Origin: a virus
Reading direction: 5' to 3' (one strand)
DNA length: 64,000 nt
Virus record (IMG/VR): IMGVR_UViG_3300032397_000003
Span: 32,001-96,000 of that record
The stretch's first letter is position 1. Every line of letters starts with the position of its first letter. The notes beneath the pieces are model-generated. The model was not told the DNA's origin and searched no databases. It was given only the letters and a program-made list of their open reading frames with translations. Shown here in pieces: positions 437 to 60,039 of this stretch. The position numbers and the translations under genes were made by a program.

Positions 437-1482
437 TATGCCCCCGTTGTAAAAGTTAAACTATAATCATCTTCTAAATTTATTCCATCACAGGATTTAG
501 CTGAAGTATTTATTAGTATATTATATTCAGTTAAAGATGTTAAATTACTTCTAGGATTTATAGTAAGAATTTTTGAAGCTATATCAAAACTCATATCTGC
601 ATCAATATAAGGAACCATATCTAAATTACTATAAACACTATCTTCGTTCATAGCAACATTAAAAGTTAAAACTATATTTGTGCTTCTTGCAACACCTGTA
701 GCATTATTTACAATATTAGAAGTAATAGTTGGTATAGAAGGGGAATGTGCAGTATCCAATAAAATATTCTGTTCTAGATTTTTTTGATTTTCTAGTTGTG
801 ATAAACGGAGTATTATGTCATCCACGTGATATACAATCTTAGGAATATTTATACCCCCAGTGGTATCTTGAGTGGGACTATTTTGCATATTAAGAACTAT
901 ATATGAGCACTTGACGTCAACAGTATGGGTAACCGGGTAGAGTTTTCCAACTGCAAACTGAGATTCTATATCGAAGGCTAGCTGTCCTCTTTCTGTTGTA
1001 TAATTTAAATCTATAACCATAGAACATAATACACCATTTAAAGTAACTGGCACATCTAGTCTTGTTAAACAAGATTCGTCTGCCGCAAATAGAGTCATTC
1101 CCCTCCAGAAGTCATATGGAGTAGTAAAGAAGGTTGTTAGTGGTATCGTAAGTAGCATAGGAATAAAGGAAACATAAGCACCAACTAATTCACTATAGAA
1201 ATTACCATTTACTTGATAGTGGCTACGATAATCGAGCGGGGCGTCGTCCGAAATATTGTACGCTGTGAACGGAAACTTTCCATTACTTGTTTTAAAGGCA
1301 TCTATTGATCTTCTGATAGAATTAGCATCATCAGAAGTATCGGCTAGAATTATTCTTTTTCTAGCCTCTACCGGGGTTTCATTAGGATATACCATTTGAG
1401 AAAAATATAATATAACCCTCTCTAATACAGCTTGAACTGCATAAGGATAGTTTACCGAAGAGGAATAATAACGTTCTGACAT
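436..1482 (-). CDS. Putative virion (neck/tail completion-like) protein with C-terminal Ig-like Big_5/SbsA domain
   Basis: C-terminal NNATGVARSTNIVLTFNVAMN...LTINP...L...TEY...FTT is the Big_5 pattern; the structural role is inferred from context. Confidence 0.6.
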   Translation of the reverse strand: MSERYYSSSVNYPYAVQAVLERVILYFSQMVYPNETPVEARKRIILADTSDDANSIRRSIDAFKTSNGKFPFTAYNISDDAPLDYRSHYQVNGNFYSELVGAYVSFIPMLLTIPLTTFFTTPYDFWRGMTLFAADESCLTRLDVPVTLNGVLCSMVIDLNYTTERGQLAFDIESQFAVGKLYPVTHTVDVKCSYIVLNMQNSPTQDTTGGINIPKIVYHVDDIILRLSQLENQKNLEQNILLDTAHSPSIPTITSNIVNNATGVARSTNIVLTFNVAMNEDSVYSNLDMVPYIDADMSFDIASKILTINPRSNLTSLTEYNILINTSAKSCDGINLEDDYSLTFTTGA

Positions 1483-2193
1483 TTATACTAACCTCAAATC
1501 ATATCTAACAGGATCATTTATATATTGTACAATATATTTCCTAAATTTTAAAAAAGCATTCCTATTATGCTTATTCATTTCATTTATATAAAAAGTAATA
1601 TGTAATGATTGACTTCTTGCAAAATTGCCTGATTTTAACATTTCCATAATATTATTATTACTATATCCTGAATATCTTAAACTTTCTATATACATATAAG
1701 CATAAGCCATAATCTCTTGTGGATTTTTCATATATTCAATATCTATATCATTATCTATTGATGAGCCTTCAAAATTATAAAAATTTATTTTATCTCCAGC
1801 TCTAACATAATATTGTCCACGATGAACTAATTCATGTGATAGTAGTATAATTAATTCTTTTTCAAATTGATTAAAAACATCAAGATTATCTTTAGATGTA
1901 TAAAAATAAAAATCATCTGTTAGATAGATAATTATATTATCTTTATTTATAACTCCTTCCACTACTCCTTTATTTACTTTCATTGAATCTATAATAACAA
2001 ACTGTATTTTATAGGTATAAAACTTTTCATTAAATAACTGAAGTGCATCACCTTTAAAAAAAATTAAAGTCCTTTTTAATTGCTTTAATTCATCTTTTAA
2101 AATATCTAAATATTTATCTACATGAACAACTGCTTCATTAAATCTTCCTAGTTGATGATAATAAGGATCAAATTTTCTTTTATACCTTTTCAT
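1483..2193 (-). CDS. HEXXH zincin-like protein with MKRYKR leader
   Basis: LSHELVH plus downstream NPQEIMAYA glutamate motif. Confidence 0.6.
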   Translation of the reverse strand: MKRYKRKFDPYYHQLGRFNEAVVHVDKYLDILKDELKQLKRTLIFFKGDALQLFNEKFYTYKIQFVIIDSMKVNKGVVEGVINKDNIIIYLTDDFYFYTSKDNLDVFNQFEKELIILLSHELVHRGQYYVRAGDKINFYNFEGSSIDNDIDIEYMKNPQEIMAYAYMYIESLRYSGYSNNNIMEMLKSGNFARSQSLHITFYINEMNKHNRNAFLKFRKYIVQYINDPVRYDLRLV

Positions 2194-2571
2194 TTATACT
2201 GCATCCTGTTGTTTTTGATTCTTCTCATTCTCGTCTTCGTCATCTAATCCAATTGTAACTGGTTTAGCTTTAGGACCATCTTCTGGTTTTTGTGAAGAGG
2301 CAAATCCCGTACTGAGGATATCTTCATTTATAAGCTCCTCATCAAGAAGTGAATCTAAGAATTCTTGAAAATTAGCCTCTTTACTTTCTATAAATTTTTC
2401 AGCACAAAGTTTATTGTTTTCACAAAGTATATCAAACATCATTTCTTTTATGAAATCTAAATTTGATTCTTGTCCTAGAAACTTTGCCTCTCTCTTACAA
2501 TCTAAATATGTTTTATTTATTAGGGAGGCTTTACATCCCCATTCATATAAACAATGTGCTAATAAATTCAT
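2194..2571 (-). CDS. Hypothetical protein with acidic tail
   Basis: ORF track; tightly packed operon. Confidence 0.6.
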   Translation of the reverse strand: MNLLAHCLYEWGCKASLINKTYLDCKREAKFLGQESNLDFIKEMMFDILCENNKLCAEKFIESKEANFQEFLDSLLDEELINEDILSTGFASSQKPEDGPKAKPVTIGLDDEDENEKNQKQQDAV

Positions 2572-2579
2572 GTTATCAC

Positions 2580-3068
2580 CTATCTTTTAAGGATATCGAA
2601 TAAACTTTTCCTTGTAGAATCCTGTTCAACCTTTATTTCATCTTGAATCACTTCATCTTGAATAACTTCTTTTTCAACTTCAGGTTCTTTGGTAGATTCT
2701 ACTCCTGATTGTTTTTCTAATATCTCTTTCACTAAAAAAGCATTACTTCTATTAGTTGTAATTATTGCATAATCTCTACATATCTCACATATCTCCACTC
2801 TACTCATAATAAATAATTGAGCTTTAGTATATATAGGCATATTATCTATATTAGGAACTGATTTATAAAGCACTTCATTAGAATCGTAATTCTTTCTTTC
2901 ATAATCAACTAATCCGGATTTATTAGCATCTGTTTTTATAAAAGGAACAAGCTTCTCTGCTACATTAGGATAGGATATCCAATCCTTTGTTAAATTTATA
3001 CCTGCTATCTGCATTGTATATTCTTTTACTGAATCTGTTAATCTATACTGGTGTACTATTCTAGCCAT
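2580..3068 (-). CDS. Hypothetical protein, first gene of the minus-strand operon
   Basis: AAGGAG RBS and TACTAAT motif (3096-3102) upstream. Confidence 0.65.
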   Translation of the reverse strand: MARIVHQYRLTDSVKEYTMQIAGINLTKDWISYPNVAEKLVPFIKTDANKSGLVDYERKNYDSNEVLYKSVPNIDNMPIYTKAQLFIMSRVEICEICRDYAIITTNRSNAFLVKEILEKQSGVESTKEPEVEKEVIQDEVIQDEIKVEQDSTRKSLFDILKR

Positions 3069-3123
3069 GTGATACTCCTTTACTTTTCATTTTTTATTAG
3101 TAAGAAAACTTTTAATTATTGTT

Positions 3124-4161
3124 TTATTGAATAAAACATTCTGTTATACTCCATACATCATGCCCTTCCTCATCATCTATATCAATAGAATCACCTTCAT
3201 TATACTTTAAAGGTATAGAATCTTTAAAATATAATATTAAGCCAGCCTCATGTTCTTTACATCTAATTAAATTTTTAATTCTTTGCTTTAAAATATTATC
3301 TACAAAAATAAATATTCTTCTATCATAATCTTCATCCCATTCTATAATAGTACCTTTATATACAGAATAACCAAATTTATATACAGTATCCTTAGTTCTA
3401 TCCAAATATATTTTATAAGAAATATTTTTATAATAAATTTGATTAGATTGATAAGGATTATTATTAACAATAATTAAGTAAGAATTTACATCATAATCCC
3501 AAATCCATTTAAAATCTTCTTTAGTGTTTTCCTTAGTTTTATACTTATCCCTAAGAAATACTATATAACTATATTGTTTATCTGATTTAACTTGATTAGT
3601 TAAAATATCATTTATATCATTTATTTTTGGTTCTTTAACTTCTTTTTTTATATCATTAATTATATCAAATCCTTTTGTAATAGTTTTATAATCCACTAAA
3701 CTATTTTTATATAATAAATTCTTTTTATCTACTTCACTTCTATTTATATCTATGGTGGGACAATTAGGAAAAAGAAAATATTCACTATCTTTATATGAGT
3801 AAACCTCTGTTATTTTCCAACTATCTTTTTGAACAGATATATATTGATCTACTGTATATTTAGAGGGTATATTATCTTTAAATAATATCCTTATTTCACC
3901 TTTATTTTGAAAAATACAATATACATTAAAATGTATGGAACTGCTTAAAGAATTTGAGCATGCTAGTAACCTAGTATCGTAATCTTTATCCCATATAACA
4001 ATAATATTTCTATATCTATTAAAAGAAAATCCATAAGGATAATTATCATCAGATAATACTTCTACCTTCTCTTTCTTATAAATAACATAATTATCTTGTA
4101 TTTGATCTTGAGATTTTTCCTTCCAATTTTTAACCAATTGGTTATATTTTTCAATATTCAT
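3124..4161 (-). CDS. Hypothetical protein with internal domain duplication
   Basis: WDKDYDTR...FKDNIPSKY...DSWKITE recurs as WDEDYDRR...FKDSIPLKY...DVWSITE. Confidence 0.7.
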   Translation of the reverse strand: MNIEKYNQLVKNWKEKSQDQIQDNYVIYKKEKVEVLSDDNYPYGFSFNRYRNIIVIWDKDYDTRLLACSNSLSSSIHFNVYCIFQNKGEIRILFKDNIPSKYTVDQYISVQKDSWKITEVYSYKDSEYFLFPNCPTIDINRSEVDKKNLLYKNSLVDYKTITKGFDIINDIKKEVKEPKINDINDILTNQVKSDKQYSYIVFLRDKYKTKENTKEDFKWIWDYDVNSYLIIVNNNPYQSNQIYYKNISYKIYLDRTKDTVYKFGYSVYKGTIIEWDEDYDRRIFIFVDNILKQRIKNLIRCKEHEAGLILYFKDSIPLKYNEGDSIDIDDEEGHDVWSITECFIQ

Positions 4162-4260
4162 TTTTCCTCTCCTTTTGTTATAGTTATTTTATCTCTTCCT
4201 ATTTGGAAAATTTTATTTTTTTTAAAACTGTAATTTTTATGGTATTTTTTAGTAATTACT

Positions 4261-44520: not shown

Positions 44521-44777
44521 ATGATTTTTTAAAAAGAAAACCACTGCATAATAGAAATGAAGAATGGAAAGAACACTGGCAAGACATGCCTGAATTTATA
44601 TGTAATGATTTAGGTCCACATTCTCAAATTATAATTTCATTTAAAACTAAAGAGGATAGAAAAGCTTTTTCTAAACTTATAAATCAACCAATATCAGAGA
44701 GAACAAAATCTTTATGGTATCCTAAAGAAGACATTGATTTTGTAGAACATTTGAGGTATGTCGATGATAAAAAATAA
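44517..44777 (+). CDS. Small WxDMPEF protein coupled to the glycosyltransferase
   Basis: HWQDMPEF...TKSLWYP; overlaps both neighbours. Confidence 0.65.
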   Translation: MNDFLKRKPLHNRNEEWKEHWQDMPEFICNDLGPHSQIIISFKTKEDRKAFSKLINQPISERTKSLWYPKEDIDFVEHLRYVDDKK

Positions 44778-45651
44778 GCCTCAATTCCCTATATACCTAC
44801 CATCTAAAGGAAGACATGATATAAAAGGTTATACAAGTGATAATCTCAGTGAAATGGAAATACCTCATTATATTGTTATAGAAGAACAACAGTATGATCT
44901 ATACTATGAGAATCATAAGGATAATAAATTTGTTACTCTACTTATTCTTGATAAAAAATATCAAGATGAATATAACACTTTTGATGATTTAGGTAGTACC
45001 AAAAGCAAAGGACCAGGTGCGGCTAGAAATTTTGCATGGGATCATTCTATTAAAATGGGATTTGATTGGCATTGGGTAATGGATGATAATATTATGTCAT
45101 TTAAAATCTTTAATAATAATAGACAGATTAAAACTACATCCGGTGTAATGTTTAAAGCTATGGAAGATTTTTGTTTAAGATATAAGAATATAGGAATGGC
45201 TGGTCCTCAGTATTATATGTTTGTACCAAGAAAAGCTATATTACCTCCTTATGTAACTAATACTCGTATATACTCGTGTAATCTCATTAGGAATGATGTT
45301 CCATATAGATGGAGAGGTCGTTATAATGAAGATACAGATTTATCTTTATGTATGTTAAAAGATGGATGGTGTACAGTTCAATTTAATGCATTTCTGCAAG
45401 AAAAACTTACAACTCAAGTGCTTGGTGGCGGTAATACAGAAGCTTTCTATGCACATGAGGGTACTCTTCCTAAATCTCAAATGTTAAAAGATATGCATCC
45501 AGATGTAACAGAGGTAGTGTGGAAATTTAATAGATGGCATCATTATGTAGATTATGGTCCATTTAAGAAAGTTAAACTTATTTTTAAAGATGATTATATA
45601 GTTAAAGAGGGTATAAATAATTATGGTATGGCATTAAAACAAGTTAAATAA
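44758..45651 (+). CDS. GT-A glycosyltransferase of the TET/JBP-associated (TAGT/GREB1-like) DNA-modification type
   Basis: PSKGR, AARNF, WVMDDNI, YSCNL, RYNEDTD, GGNT. Confidence 0.75.
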   Translation: MSMIKNKPQFPIYLPSKGRHDIKGYTSDNLSEMEIPHYIVIEEQQYDLYYENHKDNKFVTLLILDKKYQDEYNTFDDLGSTKSKGPGAARNFAWDHSIKMGFDWHWVMDDNIMSFKIFNNNRQIKTTSGVMFKAMEDFCLRYKNIGMAGPQYYMFVPRKAILPPYVTNTRIYSCNLIRNDVPYRWRGRYNEDTDLSLCMLKDGWCTVQFNAFLQEKLTTQVLGGGNTEAFYAHEGTLPKSQMLKDMHPDVTEVVWKFNRWHHYVDYGPFKKVKLIFKDDYIVKEGINNYGMALKQVK

Positions 45652-45759
45652 TTATCATTTTTACTAATACATAAAAATAATTTAATTTTAATGATTATTT
45701 CTATATATTATAGTTAAAGTTATGGATCAAATAGATATTAAACTAGTTGGAGATAAATT

Positions 45760-45984
45760 TTGAAAAAGAAGGAACCAAAGTCTTCAAGAAATACTAAGAA
45801 TCAAAAGTTATTATCACCAAAAGAATCTAAAGAACAGGTTCAAATTGAAAAAGAGGAAATTATTCAAGTTGAACTTAAAAGAAGTTATAATTGTAAATGT
45901 GGTTGTAAAGTAATTCTTGAGGGAGAAACATATAAAAGAAAAGTGAAAGATGGTTTTGAACTTTGTAGTGGCTGTTCTAAATAA
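45760..45984 (+). CDS. Small Cys-rich hypothetical protein
   Basis: Class-A promoter at 45699; CKCGC...CSGC. Confidence 0.5.
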   Translation: MKKKEPKSSRNTKNQKLLSPKESKEQVQIEKEEIIQVELKRSYNCKCGCKVILEGETYKRKVKDGFELCSGCSK

Positions 45985-46173
45985 TTTTTAAAAAATAATA
46001 AAAAGTTGTTTACATTTTTTTACATACATTGCCAGAAAGATACACCCTCTTTAGAGGTGTGTATGAATGGCAAAAATAATGAATTTTTTTGATAAAAATA
46101 AAAAAAGTAGTGTACTTTTCTATAATATTGTAATATATTATATATGATAATACTAATAAACAAGAGGTTTAAC

Positions 46174-46344
46174 ATGGAATATGAAAAGATAATATTTAAT
46201 TTTCCAAAGCAATATAAAAGAAAACTTGAAAAAATAGTTTCTATGGGGAATGTAGAAAATGAAAAAAGCACAACTTTAAGTGGGTTAATTTCTGAAACTT
46301 TAATTAGGGAATTTGATTTAGAAAATGAAAAAACATCATTATAA
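46174..46344 (+). CDS. Small ribbon-helix-helix-like protein inside the IS (ORF track start 46144)
   Basis: GAGG RBS before ATG 46174; KIIFNFP...LSGLISETL strand-helix-helix pattern. Confidence 0.5.
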   Translation: MEYEKIIFNFPKQYKRKLEKIVSMGNVENEKSTTLSGLISETLIREFDLENEKTSL

Positions 46345-46723
46345 ATCTGATTGTAATTATCATCTTATTATATGTCCTAAATATAGACATAAGGTATTGC
46401 ATGATGAAGTCAAGAATTTTTTAAAGAATAAATTTAAAGAAATTTGTATTAATTATGATTATGAATTATTAGATTTTTCAATAGAAATAGACCATATTCA
46501 CTTTGCATTAAAATTACAACCAACGTATTCTATTGGTTCTGTTGTTAGAAATTTAAAATCAATAACTGGATATTATTTGTTTAAGGAATTTCCAGAATTA
46601 AGAAAGAAATATTTTTGGAATAGCGGATTTTGGACTCATGGTTATTTTGTTTCGACTGTCGGTCGAGTTTCAAAAGAAAAAATTATGGAATACATTAAGT
46701 CACAAGAAAATTATGATAACTAA
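46325..46723 (+). CDS. tnpA: Y1 HUH transposase TnpA
   Basis: YHLIICPKYR, DHIH, LKSIT, FWTHGYFVSTVG, YIKSQ. Confidence 0.95.
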   Translation: MKKHHYKSDCNYHLIICPKYRHKVLHDEVKNFLKNKFKEICINYDYELLDFSIEIDHIHFALKLQPTYSIGSVVRNLKSITGYYLFKEFPELRKKYFWNSGFWTHGYFVSTVGRVSKEKIMEYIKSQENYDN

Positions 46724-47957
46724 AAATCAACAAATAAAATATTCTCTTTCCGCTACAGGAGAAAAAAGAAAAACTCAAACTTGTAAAGTTTATGAATTAA
46801 AGCTTTGTGAAAACAAACTTAATAAAATACAAATTGATTTTTTGCATAGGATTTTCCTTGAGGCAAAATGGATATATAATGATATTTTAAGCTTTAATGA
46901 TTTAAAAAACTATGATTGCAAAAAGAAAGAATTAGAAATCCTAAATAAAGAGAAAGAAAAGGAAATAAGAGAATTAAAAGTTTTAGGTAGTCAAATTAAA
47001 CAAGAACTATTACAAAGAACCTGGGGCTCTATTAAATCTCTTTCTACTAAAAAGAAAAAGGGCAAAACAAAGCAAGTAGGTAGACTTAAATTTAAAAGTC
47101 AAATAAATTCAATTCCTTTAAAACAATATGGAATTACATATAAGTTTCAGAAAGGTAATTTAAAAATACAAAACTGTAAATCATTGTTTCAAATTAAAGG
47201 ATTAAAACAAATTCCTGAGAATGCTGAATTTGCAAATGCTAATTTAATTAGAAAACCTTCAGGCTATTATCTTAAAGTAACTTGCTTTCTTCCAATTGAA
47301 AGTAAAAATATAAGTAAAGAAATAGTTGGTATTGATTTTGGAATTAAAGATGATTTGGTTTTAAGCAATGGAATTAAATTTCAAACTAAATTTCCAACAT
47401 CTTTTCAAATTAAAAGAGAGCAAAGAAAATTATCTAAAAAGAAAAAAGGTAGTCATAATTATTGGAAACAAAAAAATAAAGTTGCATTAGCTTATGAAAA
47501 ACAGAATAATAAAAAACAAGATACAAAAAATAAAATCATAAGTTATTTAAAAAATAATTATTCTCATATAGCAATTCAAAATGAAAATATAAAAGGATGG
47601 CACGCAGGATTATTTGGAAAACAAGTACAACAATCAATTTTAGGTGGTATAATTTCGGAATTGAAGAAACTTCCGCAGACACATATTGTTGATAGATTTT
47701 TTCCAAGTACAAAACTTTGTCCTGAATGTGGTCAATTAAATATTTTAACATTAGCAGATAGAATGTACAATTGTTCTTGTGGTTATTCTCAGGATAGAGA
47801 TATTCATAGTGCAAAAAATATTCTTTTAGAAACAATACCTATGGAATATAGGAATTTTAAGCCTGTGGAGTTTAATACCTCTGCGATAGATTATTTAAAG
47901 TCTTTCGTAAGTGTGAACTATGAAGCAGGAAGATACAACTCTTTAGAGTTGTGTTAG
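46713..47957 (+). CDS. tnpB: TnpB RNA-guided nuclease (ORF track start 46638)
   Basis: GIDFG RuvC-I, IAIQNENI RuvC-II, PSTKLCPECG...CSCG, DRDIHSAKNI RuvC-III. Confidence 0.92.
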   Translation: MITKNQQIKYSLSATGEKRKTQTCKVYELKLCENKLNKIQIDFLHRIFLEAKWIYNDILSFNDLKNYDCKKKELEILNKEKEKEIRELKVLGSQIKQELLQRTWGSIKSLSTKKKKGKTKQVGRLKFKSQINSIPLKQYGITYKFQKGNLKIQNCKSLFQIKGLKQIPENAEFANANLIRKPSGYYLKVTCFLPIESKNISKEIVGIDFGIKDDLVLSNGIKFQTKFPTSFQIKREQRKLSKKKKGSHNYWKQKNKVALAYEKQNNKKQDTKNKIISYLKNNYSHIAIQNENIKGWHAGLFGKQVQQSILGGIISELKKLPQTHIVDRFFPSTKLCPECGQLNILTLADRMYNCSCGYSQDRDIHSAKNILLETIPMEYRNFKPVEFNTSAIDYLKSFVSVNYEAGRYNSLELC

Positions 47958-47994
47958 TTCACTAATAGAAATAATATAAAATTGAGGTAAATAA

Positions 47995-48551
47995 ATGAAA
48001 AGATATGCACCATTTAAGTTTAAAGAAGCAAATAAAAAAGATTTAAATGAACTTATAGGAGAACTTAAAGCTCAATATGGATCATTCAAGGATGTAAAGA
48101 AAGATAAAGACTTTAAAAAACTTTCAGATGGGGATCAAGAGTATGTACTTGATGAATTAAAAGCAGAAGGGACTTTTAAGGACTAATAATGATGGTAGAA
48201 AGATATAAACAATTTTTTGAAGATTCTAAGTATATAGATTTCTCTAAAGATAGGGATTATATAGAATTATTAGGTAATCTTAAAGGAAAAGATTATTCTA
48301 TCACTATGCAATGGAGTGGTCCAAAACAAGGGTTTAATGTTGAATGTTCTATAGTTACATCTCAAGGAAGTGAATTTATATACGGTAAAAATTCTAATAT
48401 ACATGGTGGGAGTGTAGAGCAAACTTTAACACCCATCTTTATAAATATATTTAAAATATCCGTTCCTAAAATAGAAAATGGTGGATCTGGATTAGATGTT
48501 AATCATATGATTGAAACATTGATTAAAAAATATAAATTTAAAGTGAAATAA
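47995..48551 (+). CDS. Two small proteins with RY-type leaders (47995-48186 MKRYAPFKFKEA; 48189-48551 MMVERYKQFFED)
   Basis: ORF track; downstream of the IS-interrupted TACTAAT motif. Confidence 0.65.
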
Positions 48552-48626
48552 TTTTTAATTCTCATCTAATTTTCTATATATTATAAAGGTAGATAAGAAA
48601 AAATAATTTAAACTAGGGGTTCTATA

Positions 48627-49427
48627 GTGAACATAATAAAATTAACAAAAGAGGAGATTAAAAAGTCAGCTCCAGCAGTATATGCAACTCAACCAAAGAA
48701 GTCTATGACAGATAGATATTCTTTTGTATCAACAGACAAAATAATTACAGGATTTAATCAAGCAGGTTGGGAAGTTACAAAAGCTTTTCAAAGTAAAACT
48801 AAGAAAGACGATATAGCAGAAAGAAAGCATGTAGTAAGATTATCTAATCCTGATTTTCAACCAATGATGAAAGAGGTAGGCTCACTTACACCAGAGATAA
48901 TTTTAATCAATTCCCACAACGGTACCTCGGCAGTGCGCATAGAACTGGGATTATTTAGACTCGTTTGCGGTAACGGATTAGTGATTGCCAACAGCAGATT
49001 TGCACAAGTAAAAAGAAGACACTTTGGAATAGATCAAGATGAAATATTCCAAGTAATATATGATGCTACAAATGAGTTTCAAGACGTTTGGGGAAAAATA
49101 GACGAGTATAAGTCTATTAAACTTACAAATGGACAAAGACTTGATTTTGCTTCTAAAGTAATAGAGGAAAATTGGGGAACAAGCTCAGTAATAACTCCAG
49201 ATGCTTTATTACTACCAAGGAGAACAGAAGATAAAAATGATGATCTTTTCTCTGTAATGAACGTTGTTCAGGAGAATGTTATCAAAGGAGGAGCTAACTA
49301 TTTACACCCTCATAGAAATACATTAAGAAGAACAAAAGCAATTAAAAATGCTGATAGGGATATAAAAGTAAATGCTCTTCTGTGGCAAATGATAGAATCT
49401 TTTAGATTATCAAAAAAATTCAGATAA
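48627..49427 (+). CDS. DUF932/DUF945-family protein
   Basis: NSHNGTS...GLFRLVCGNG, RRTED...LF...NVVQENVIKGG. Confidence 0.85.
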   Translation: MNIIKLTKEEIKKSAPAVYATQPKKSMTDRYSFVSTDKIITGFNQAGWEVTKAFQSKTKKDDIAERKHVVRLSNPDFQPMMKEVGSLTPEIILINSHNGTSAVRIELGLFRLVCGNGLVIANSRFAQVKRRHFGIDQDEIFQVIYDATNEFQDVWGKIDEYKSIKLTNGQRLDFASKVIEENWGTSSVITPDALLLPRRTEDKNDDLFSVMNVVQENVIKGGANYLHPHRNTLRRTKAIKNADRDIKVNALLWQMIESFRLSKKFR

Positions 49428-58368: not shown

Positions 58369-60039
58369 GTGTTACTCAGGGGGGAGTCTATGAACAAAGC
58401 AAGAAATAACTTTTATAATATTTTTATAAAACCAAAAGAATTAACAAGTGAAGATTTAGTGAATATTCATAATTATATATCTGAACTTGAAGCAGATAAA
58501 GCGGAGTTAATAGAATTTGTGGAGGAGATTCAAAATAGTTTTTCTATTTATACATATGACGAATTTAAGGATTGGAATGATAGAGTAAACAAATTCAAGG
58601 AGGAAAGATGAAATGTGAAGATTGTAATTGTTTCTATCATAGAAGACAAAAGGAGAAAGAAATGGAAAAACAAAAGTTTCAGTTTGAGAGTGTTGAAGCA
58701 TTTCAAATATATGATAATCAAATAAATAGCAGTACATATAATGAAAGATTAAAACGAGCTATTCAGTATGGTTACATCCGCAAATCAGAACTTGAAACAC
58801 TGGTTGAGGAAGCGGAAGAGATTTATGATGAAGCGTTTGATGATAAAAGTACAAAATATACAGCATTGGAAATGAAGCAATATCACGCAATTCAAGCCTT
58901 AAAAAAAGATCATCCGGAGTTTAAGAAATGATAACTGAATGTAAAAACTGTGTACTACAAAGAAACTTTGAATGCCCTCAGTATTTGGGAGAAGCTGTTG
59001 GATGGCGATGGTTCACAAGAACAGATGATTCTTGGAAAGATTGTTATAAGAATTATTTAGCTAAGAAAGAATTAGATTAAAATTTAGGAGAAGTAAAATG
59101 AAAAAATACATAGCAATAGTAATAATATTAGCGATATCAATAGGAATCAATATATGGTTCTTTGCGGGTAAAGGGATTCAGATTTATAATTATACCAGAA
59201 ATATAAATCATCAGGAACAATATCAACAGCAATGGCAGGGGATGCTATCTATCAATCAGTTTATGACTCAGGGAAATACTCTCGAGTGGAAACTTGTTAA
59301 ATGCTTGTTAGAAGATGTACCTGCAGAACTAAATAAATTGCACCCAATATCTAGTCTATATTGTAAGATTACTCTACATTCTAATTCAGCATGGGTTGAT
59401 CTAATTTATCCAGATATTTTTACTAAAACAAAAGATGTAGAGGTTAAGAAATAAATGTTTTACGAAGGTGATGAAGTTAGAACTTGTTCTAAAGTCACTC
59501 AGAAGACTAAAGATATTCTAGTTGCTAATGGTATTAAACCCGGACAGAAAGGAATAGTTATATCTGAAGTAACCATAGTAACTGTTAATTTCGGTGGTAA
59601 AATAGTAACCTTAGATGAAAATGCTATAGAGTCTATTCTTGAGTATAAACCTAATAATAACTTTGATCTAGATGATTTAAAAGGATTATTTGGAATGAAA
59701 TAATAAGGAGGAAGAATGAATAAAAAATATTTAATAGTAATACTATCTTTAATTATGTTTTCAATAATTCTTGGTTTATGTATAGCGTTTTATACGCACG
59801 ATAAAATAAATAAATTTGAAGCAAAACTTAAAGAAACTTATTCTGAAGTAGTATATATTAAAAATAGTCAATTTATAGTCTCAGATAAAAAAGGAGATAT
59901 TCATTTAATAAATATGTCAGGTAAAACTCAAATCTTACTTTCTCTACAGGACATCGAAAGTGGATTAAATAGAGATTTCACTCTAAAGGATATTAGTAAA
60001 CCAGATTTAAAATTAAAGCATAATTTTACTAATAAATAA
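58369..60039 (+). CDS. Small hypothetical genes (58369-58611, 58608-58931, 59098-59454 TM, 59455-59703, 59716-60039 TM)
   Basis: ORF track, RBSs, N-terminal hydrophobic helices. Confidence 0.6.

Follow-up and report, generated by a model that had tools for sequence, protein, structure and literature searches.

In IS608 of Helicobacter pylori (structures 2a6m and 2vjv), a Y1 transposase of the HUH type is followed by tnpB, and the element is bounded by subterminal imperfect palindromes; a left guide, AAAG, belongs to the target TTAC, and insertion takes place 3' of TTAC without target duplication (PMC3201880). A homing or retention model has been published for TnpB (10.1101/2023.03.14.532601; reviewed in PMC13565253). 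As described for ISDra2 and an IS605 element of Geobacillus (10.1101/2023.03.14.532601), the right flank provides the guide, the target-adjacent motif (TAM) equals the TnpA target, and the allele free of the insertion sequence (IS) is the target. Retention of transposons with the help of TnpB has been demonstrated in bacteria and on plasmids; spread between co-infecting phages, under the name 'non-restorative homing', figures in the review so far only as a theoretical possibility (PMC13565253). Here we describe an IS200/IS605-family element in a stretch of 64,000 nucleotides (the window), which comprises bases 32001-96000 of the IMG/VR virus record IMGVR_UViG_3300032397_000003, a genome of 155,573 bp with direct terminal repeats. 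The element is present there as a single copy and stands in place of a gene that a closely related, IS-free sibling phage carries. The homing idea, raised by an earlier sequence-only reading of the window, is the already published TnpB model; new at this locus are the natural pair of an IS-bearing and an IS-free phage with a perfect target, the gene replacement, and a late-type promoter box within the IS. The features on which the argument draws are the following (ORF, open reading frame; reRNA, right-end element RNA).

46020-46023, plus strand: TTAC, left cleavage and target tetranucleotide and predicted TAM, in the flank, 16 nt 5' of the hairpin foot.
46024-47962, plus strand: IS200/IS605-family element of 1939 bp with an Arc-like ORF, tnpA and tnpB, all on the plus strand; bounds from contigs L024 and L005 and five right-end copies.
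46029-46073, plus strand: left-end structure with outer stem TTGCCA/TGGCAA, guide AAAG (46036-46039) in an internal loop, and an imperfect palindrome (46040-46064).
46151-46158, plus strand: TACTAATA box within the IS, an exact copy, 15 nt upstream of the Arc-like ORF.
46174-46344, plus strand: Arc-like small ORF of 56 aa, probably a ribbon-helix-helix (RHH) protein judging by position and, weakly, by fold.
46325-46723, plus strand: tnpA, Y1 (HUH) transposase of 132 aa, matching PF01797 over its full length (E 1.9e-39).
46713-47957, plus strand: tnpB, 414 aa, with PF01385 (OrfB_IS605) and PF07282 (Cas12f1-like TNB domain); D208, Q289/E291 and D363; zinc finger C336, C339, C354 and C356.
47800-47962, plus strand: predicted guide-RNA (omegaRNA/reRNA) scaffold, overlapping the 3' end of tnpB; 5' limit approximate.
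47929-47962, plus strand: right end with guide GAAG (47929-47932), hairpin (47933-47954) and TCAC (47959-47962).
47960-47967, plus strand: CACTAATA, a promoter-like box rebuilt across the right junction (TCAC, then TAATAG) with a 7/8 match.
47963-47982, plus strand: right flank predicted to be read as guide, TAATAGAAATAATATAAAAT, with an assumed length of 20 nt.
47995-48186, plus strand: downstream gene with an MKRY leader, whose promoter-like box is cut by the IS.

The ends of the element resemble those of IS608. They are subterminal imperfect palindromes without terminal inverted repeats and are conserved in other copies, and both hairpins (46040-46064 and 47933-47954) fold as single-stranded DNA with the common core CTCTTTAGAG; for the left end the fold has -10.4 kcal/mol and a z-score of -3.7. 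The outer left stem covaries, reading TTGCCA/TGGCAA in the window and TCGCCC/GGGCGA in L005. The guide AAAG lies directly 5' of the left hairpin and pairs with TTAC exactly according to the IS608 rule, with a second TTAC present at 46010-46013. As in IS608, the right cleavage site is read by a four-nucleotide guide 5' of the right hairpin; however, the right pair is GAAG/TCAC here and GAAT/TCAA in IS608, and the spacings are 16 and 8 nt rather than 19 and 10 (PMC3201880 for the 19 nt). Mini-elements in three further contigs (L014, L016 and L017) have the guide AAAA together with TTAT at the same 16-nt spacing, which means that guide and flanking tetranucleotide change together, as the rule predicts. 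GAAG and TCAC also fit the pairing positions that we take to be those in the IS608 structures. There is no target duplication around the element, and insertion occurred 3' of TTAC in the window as well as in L005. The letters and coordinates given by the sequence-only reading (TTAC at 46020-46023 and 46010, AAAG, GAAG, and TCAC at 47962) were all confirmed, as was the IS608-like pairing that it had proposed for both ends. The element is, by these sequence features, an IS608-type member of the IS200/IS605 family, a new example that follows the known rules as far as can be read from the DNA. It differs from IS608 in its additional Arc-like ORF, its residence in a phage, its phage promoter-like box and a Gln at the canonical RuvC-II position of TnpB.

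Both boundaries were set by comparison with other contigs. Five other copies in viral contigs all finish with ...GTTAGTTCAC and diverge from the next base, and the right-end stretch 47929-47962 is identical in all of them save three substitutions in the hairpin of L007; in the window, TCAC is followed by TAATAGAAATAATATAAAATTGAGG and then by the MKRY gene at 47995. At the left, the sibling L024 is identical through 46023 and differs from the next base, the left junction in L005 reads TTTAC and then ATAT..., and loose contig ends from two sequencing runs have the flank ...TTTTAC within one base of 46024.

The sibling L024 was found by scanning metagenome contigs with the 25 bases to the right of the element. 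Its left flank is identical to the window at 127 of 127 bases, through the C of the TTAC at 46023, and its right flank at 2428 of 2436 bases (99.67%) from 47961, with the first difference at 48007. Between the flanks there is no IS but a segment of 546 bp encoding a 164-aa protein of the pyrimidine-dimer glycosylase family (DenV-like, Pyr_excise; PF03013, E 8e-8; phrog_624, E 1e-48). The segment starts right after TTTTTTTAC and ends with ...TTATTAC, followed by TAATAGAAAT...; both breakpoints lie directly 3' of TTAC. The IS therefore stands in place of the DenV-like gene, and the left TTAC at 46020-46023 and the TAATAG at 47963 were not former neighbours. No DenV-like gene was detected in the window's genome by tblastn. 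The gene occupies the same place in L003/L004, relatives with 82% identity, and is therefore ancestral. The sequence-only reading had taken the locus as a simple insertion within the promoter motif, a view that the 546-bp gene between the flanks of the sibling contradicts. The empty-site junction that it predicted, TTAC joined to TAATAG, does exist in L024 at the right-hand site, but neither L024 nor the contigs of four runs, which were compared over 45300-48700 via reads and contigs, hold a simple empty site. No contig of these runs joins 46023 to 47963, and the sibling allele was absent among the matches listed; the listed joints have sides of 21-22 nt (one of 47 nt) and lie at unrelated places.

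A TTAC would have been the entry point of the IS, in the simplest case the one that immediately follows the DenV-like gene, with the 546 bp being lost afterwards. Possible routes of loss are recombination between two IS copies, one at each TTAC, and slippage involving the TTAC/(C)ATAC repeats. L003/L004 provide a second case of an element at which left-side flanking DNA was lost: here a 5'-truncated, TnpB-only IS copy (2920-4255) replaces about 360 bp in the middle of a conserved phage gene (phrog_12094; homologue of the window gene at 48627-49427). In this lineage of phages, IS605 elements are found at places of DNA loss, so that equating removal of the element with the empty site can mislead. 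On the minus strand of L024 (about 2950-3000), the DenV-like gene has a sigma-70-like promoter composed of TTTACA and TATATA with 16 nt in between. The IS junction on the left falls within this spacer, so that of the promoter just the -35-like half is retained in the window (46009-46023).

The interior of the element, from 46174 to 47957, contains three ORFs in the same direction. In TnpA, DHIHF represents the HUH motif; it and the Tyr within EYIKSQ align with the matching motifs of the solved Y1 transposases 2ec2 and 2xm3, and the IS608 TnpA structure 2a6m also matches. TnpB matches both ISDra2 TnpB and ISFba1 TnpB in sequence, and its AlphaFold2 (AF2) model (pLDDT 84) has ISFba1 TnpB (8iaz) as its best PDB match (Foldseek E 4e-18). 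Both proteins are compact TnpBs of about 400 aa with a zinc finger and a RAGATH-18-like scaffold downstream (PMC11061315). ISFba1, however, is an IS607 element with a serine recombinase, the TAM AGGAG and a reRNA outside the coding sequence, whereas the TnpB of the window goes with a Y1 TnpA and an inferred TAM of TTAC, its scaffold extends over the end of tnpB and scores below the Rfam threshold, and Q289 takes the place of E290. Among 116 TnpB homologues Q289 is invariant and E291 nearly so, and D208, D363 and the zinc-finger Cys residues are likewise conserved. Residues 286-296 follow the clade motif I-Q-[DN]-E-x-I-x-x-W, compared with I-E-D-L-N-V-K-G-M in ISFba1; all 116 homologues examined have the Gln in place of the canonical Glu and a Glu two residues on. 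TnpB clades with an altered RuvC-II, some of them virus-specific, have been predicted to be active through a rearranged site (PMC10691335). If the Gln-x-Glu site is indeed active, this TnpB would be a working example of such a rearranged active site. Its nuclease activity is uncertain because the canonical RuvC-II Glu is Gln; the element as a whole is structurally intact and probably active.

The 56-aa ORF resembles the Arc (RHH) repressors of IS605 elements (bioRxiv 10.64898/2026.09.24.754181) in that it is a small ORF beside tnpA, lies behind a promoter region and has a strand-helix-helix-like pattern. It differs in having no sequence match to Arc/RHH families, in the co-directional order arc-tnpA-tnpB, which is commonly divergent, and in that the promoter at issue resembles a phage late box. 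Sixteen close homologues were found, and the AF2 model has a pLDDT of 83. Many top rows of a structure comparison were RHH proteins (TraM, DinJ, PutA, NikR, Omega, CopA and RelB), with Z of 3-4.5 only; Foldseek gave no match, searches of Pfam (E <= 1) and PHROG gave none either, and RHH_1 clusters of the atlas appeared only at a score of 0.90.

A TnpB guide RNA is also predicted at the right end. Its scaffold contains a RAGATH-18-like core at 47862-47931 (33.4 bits, E 0.001), which recurs in the L003, L005 and L006 copies, and the scaffold RNA folds with a z-score of -2.6. RAGATH-18 RNAs are known TnpB guides, the ISFba1 guide among them (PMC11061315). A scaffold transcript would run into the flank and yield a guide beginning with TAATAGAAAT. 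In L024, TTAC is followed by a perfect match to this guide, with 44 nt identical after the TAM, within a TTACTAATA site before the MKRY gene. The match holds for any guide length within these 44 nt, and such an arrangement is what the published TnpB model calls for (10.1101/2023.03.14.532601), as does the 'non-restorative homing' case of the review (PMC13565253). TnpA would excise the top strand precisely, giving TTAC joined to TAATAG; TnpB with its guide would cut an IS-free copy, either the excised sister genome or that of a co-infecting sibling; and recombinational repair from an IS-bearing genome would copy the IS back in. Conversion of the sibling would also erase the DenV-like gene, because repair needs homology to the left of the 546 bp. 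We favour, as a fairly probable account, an intact and probably active phage IS608-type element that has taken the place of a DenV-like gene and is maintained by excision, guided cutting and copy-back. That TnpB would cut IS-free siblings had also been suggested by the sequence-only reading: TAM and target are present letter for letter in L024, but with Gln for the RuvC-II Glu cleavage itself is less certain.

Compared with the retention described for ISDra2 and Geobacillus IS605, the locus adds a natural IS-free sibling phage with TAM and perfect target, and a conversion that would delete a 546-bp gene; this comparison is at the level of sequence. It thereby offers a concrete natural pair, in which one phage has the element and the other has the TAM with a perfect target, together with a gene that would be lost on conversion. 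The proposed behaviour is akin to that of the free-standing homing endonucleases SegB, SegF and Mob of T-even phages (localized marker exclusion), selfish nucleases that cut a sibling site absent from their own genome and spread by repair with co-conversion; here, recognition would be by guide RNA and TAM and not by protein, and the element would also be able to transpose.

The sequence-only reading had placed the element in a promoter motif, and this motif is real. TACTAATA occurs 44 times in the genome, against 23 expected, and is a strictly positioned promoter-like box: 27 of the 44 copies fall in the intergenic 7.8% of the genome, and 25 precede a co-oriented start by 14-37 nt, in most cases with an intervening ribosome-binding site; this zone makes up about 2.7% of positions (arithmetic estimate). 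Upstream of starts, single-base variants at positions 2-6 are almost absent, and A is tolerated at position 1. Immediately 5' of the box, T and A are about equally frequent; therefore only half of the boxes contain TTAC. One box precedes the gene for the head-maturation protease. The box looks like a T4-style late promoter, a type that consists of a single -10-like octamer without a -35 element. A scan for sigma-70-type promoters gave no enrichment (24 against 22 expected). The longer word TTACTAATA has 24 sites in the genome. In the window alone its six sites are not above chance (3.6 expected; 12 of 100 shuffles reach six); all sites listed in the sequence-only reading exist, and one was missed, at 59991-59999 on the minus strand, within a coding region and with no gene downstream. 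A second recurring upstream word, (T)CTATATATTATA / TTATATTATA, was noted at 45661-45720, at 48575-48600 and in L004 at 960-1000; it precedes several non-late-looking genes and may be another promoter class.

L003/L004 (82% nucleotide identity) and L024 have an intact TACTAATA ahead of the MKRY homologue, with about 27-29 nt between box and ATG. In the window the right junction leaves the near-copy that had been predicted, CACTAATA, and this is the sole CACTAATA before a gene genome-wide. A scan of the plus strand from 45600 to 48700 detected no terminator-like site, hence none between tnpB and the MKRY gene, and expression of the gene is therefore probably kept, either from the 7/8 box or by read-through. 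The landing of the IS in the MKRY box looks like an incidental by-product of TTAC targeting. Fifteen of the 137 intergenic TTAC sites lie within TTACTAATA, so that an insertion surviving in a 92%-coding genome would have about a one-in-nine chance of hitting a box. A preference of the IS for the box was rejected, since the nine other right-end flanks are unrelated and in no case begin with TAATA.

The IS itself carries an exact TACTAATA at 46151-46158, which is kept in L005, the only other complete copy, beside a 9-nt indel. The chance of finding TACTAATA on that strand of the 110-nt spacer is about 1% (arithmetic estimate). The IS genes are probably driven by this late-type box of the phage's own kind; the locus shows that an IS can carry the late-type box of its resident phage. 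A 74% match of the IS promoter region to genome positions 141290-141374 was discarded as AT-rich and uninformative. More tentatively, and in our estimate unlikely to hold in full, the element could belong to a phage-resident IS605 lineage wired to late transcription via its own TACTAATA, with TnpB homing between co-infecting siblings, cutting at the TTAC-TAATAG late box and overwriting the DenV-like gene, by analogy an RNA-guided counterpart of the exclusion exerted by T4 Seg and Mob nucleases.

Several points weigh against the account of excision, guided cutting and copy-back. Gln289 occupies the alignment position of the canonical RuvC-II Glu (E290 of ISFba1), for which the nearby Glu291 may or may not substitute; the RAGATH-18 score of 33.4 bits is below the Rfam gathering score of 44.9, and the TAM is read from three to four junctions. 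Fold support for the Arc-like ORF is weak. No RNA run was among those listed as containing the element. Neither an excision joint nor an intermediate allele was seen in the contigs of the four runs, although contigs drop rare variants, and two alleles are too few to give the order of events by which the 546 bp disappeared. The gene for a TET-associated glycosyltransferase (44758-45651; PF20691, E 8e-42) adjoins the locus; the phage DNA may therefore carry modified cytosines, which might hinder TnpB. At the predicted target, the TAM has one C residue and the strand opposite the guide target has one.

The most serious alternative concerns TnpB itself, which could be an RNA-guided binder like TldR or Cas12m, acting as a repressor, for instance at the MKRY box in IS-free genomes. 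The alignment of Q289 with E290 of ISFba1 and the invariance of this Gln in 116 homologues would agree with such a role, and nuclease-dead regulators as well as inactive TnpBs with catalytic substitutions have been documented (PMC10705468; bioRxiv 10.64898/2026.09.24.754181). However, D208, D363, the zinc finger and the Glu two residues past Q289 show little or no variation, as would be expected if the site were rearranged but functional, which has been proposed for other RuvC-II-altered clades (PMC10691335); the gene is also part of a mobile element with intact ends and tnpA rather than of a fixed regulatory locus. The protein also differs from TldR in that it retains two catalytic residues out of three, with a Glu close by, that it is full length with 414 aa, and that it is encoded within an element with tnpA and ends. 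A non-nuclease TnpB thus appears unlikely to us. A more far-reaching role, in which the TAATA of the guide together with the TAM would let TnpB bind or cut other TTACTAATA promoters and exert global control of late genes, had been considered conceivable in the sequence-only reading for promoter binding. All 24 genomic TTACTAATA sites share the TAM and 5 nt with the target, but every genomic TTAC site has at least 3 mismatches to the first 12 positions of the guide and at least 4 when 16 are compared. In addition, the guides of other IS copies are unrelated (nine right-end flanks are mutually unlike), which excludes such a role as a function of the element, and we regard this role as extremely improbable.

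The history of the locus could also be simpler than a gene replacement, with an ancestor in which TTTTTTTAC was directly followed by TAATAGAAAT without intervening DNA, and the 546 bp of the sibling gained later at the same point. Removal of the IS does give a perfect TTACTAATA box, and the sibling segment has a TTAC on either side, as though it had been inserted behind a single one. Since the DenV-like gene, TACTAATA and the MKRY gene also occur together in L003/L004 at 82% nucleotide identity, this arrangement is older than the split; moreover, the 546-bp segment has promoter-like and ribosome-binding sequences of its own and no IS-like hairpins, and one more coincidence would be needed for a 99.7%-identical genome to gain a gene at precisely this base. 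Gain of the gene after a simple insertion is accordingly improbable in our view. We give about as little weight to the possibility that the IS is a dead relic, whose position has no present consequence beyond the weakening of one promoter. It would agree with the lack of an excision joint, the single genomic copy and the 86-89% identity of the nearest other copies. In contrast, none of the three ORFs is interrupted or truncated, the ends with their guide/cleavage pairs are intact on both sides, the flanks of the IS-free sibling differ by only 0.3%, so that the change is recent, and many TnpBs with 87-91% identity occur in different contexts of the same habitat.

The genome that hosts the element is that of a T4-like, AT-rich phage with a G+C content of 29%. 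Its genes around the locus are phage-like, including an ORF for a family-A DNA polymerase, the TET-associated glycosyltransferase and small ORFs. In a DNA comparison with GenBank phages, the neighbouring glycosyltransferase gene was the sole match. A search for relatives via the 120-aa downstream gene found none; searches via the MKRY gene led to L020 and L023, which differ upstream, have no box and are uninformative on the insertion site.

TnpBs of other copies in viral contigs are 69-91% identical to that of the window, and 261 GenBank phage records match it, in line with TnpB genes being common among phages. Close relatives of TnpB were found only on phage-sized contigs: a scan of one genome per species (about 185,000 bacterial and archaeal species), which sees close relatives only, returned just a TnpB of 49% identity on a 2.6-kb contig of a Babeliales metagenome-assembled genome, which offers no hint of the host. 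Scans of viral contigs for the left-end pattern and for the Arc-like ORF led only to the L005 contig again. There, the IS lies just upstream of an adjoining 450-aa ORF (1049-2401, minus strand), which has repeated Cys-rich HGDFEQ...C-x-x-C units and an endonuclease-like C-terminal part and whose called start is inside the left end of the IS. Smaller units were observed as well. L017 has a mini-element of about 340 bp (1480-1867) with left and right hairpin, and single-hairpin units of about 46-52 nt, in which a left-type 5' part is joined to the right-type tail TAGTTCAC, occur in L014 (12490-12537), L016 (2417-2464) and L011 (2290-2344); these may be non-autonomous relatives or footprints. The left hairpin (window 45984-46097) had a contig depth of about 95 in run X8, compared with about 5 over the phage flanks and 20-45 over tnpB, indicating that many related hairpin-bearing elements share the sample.

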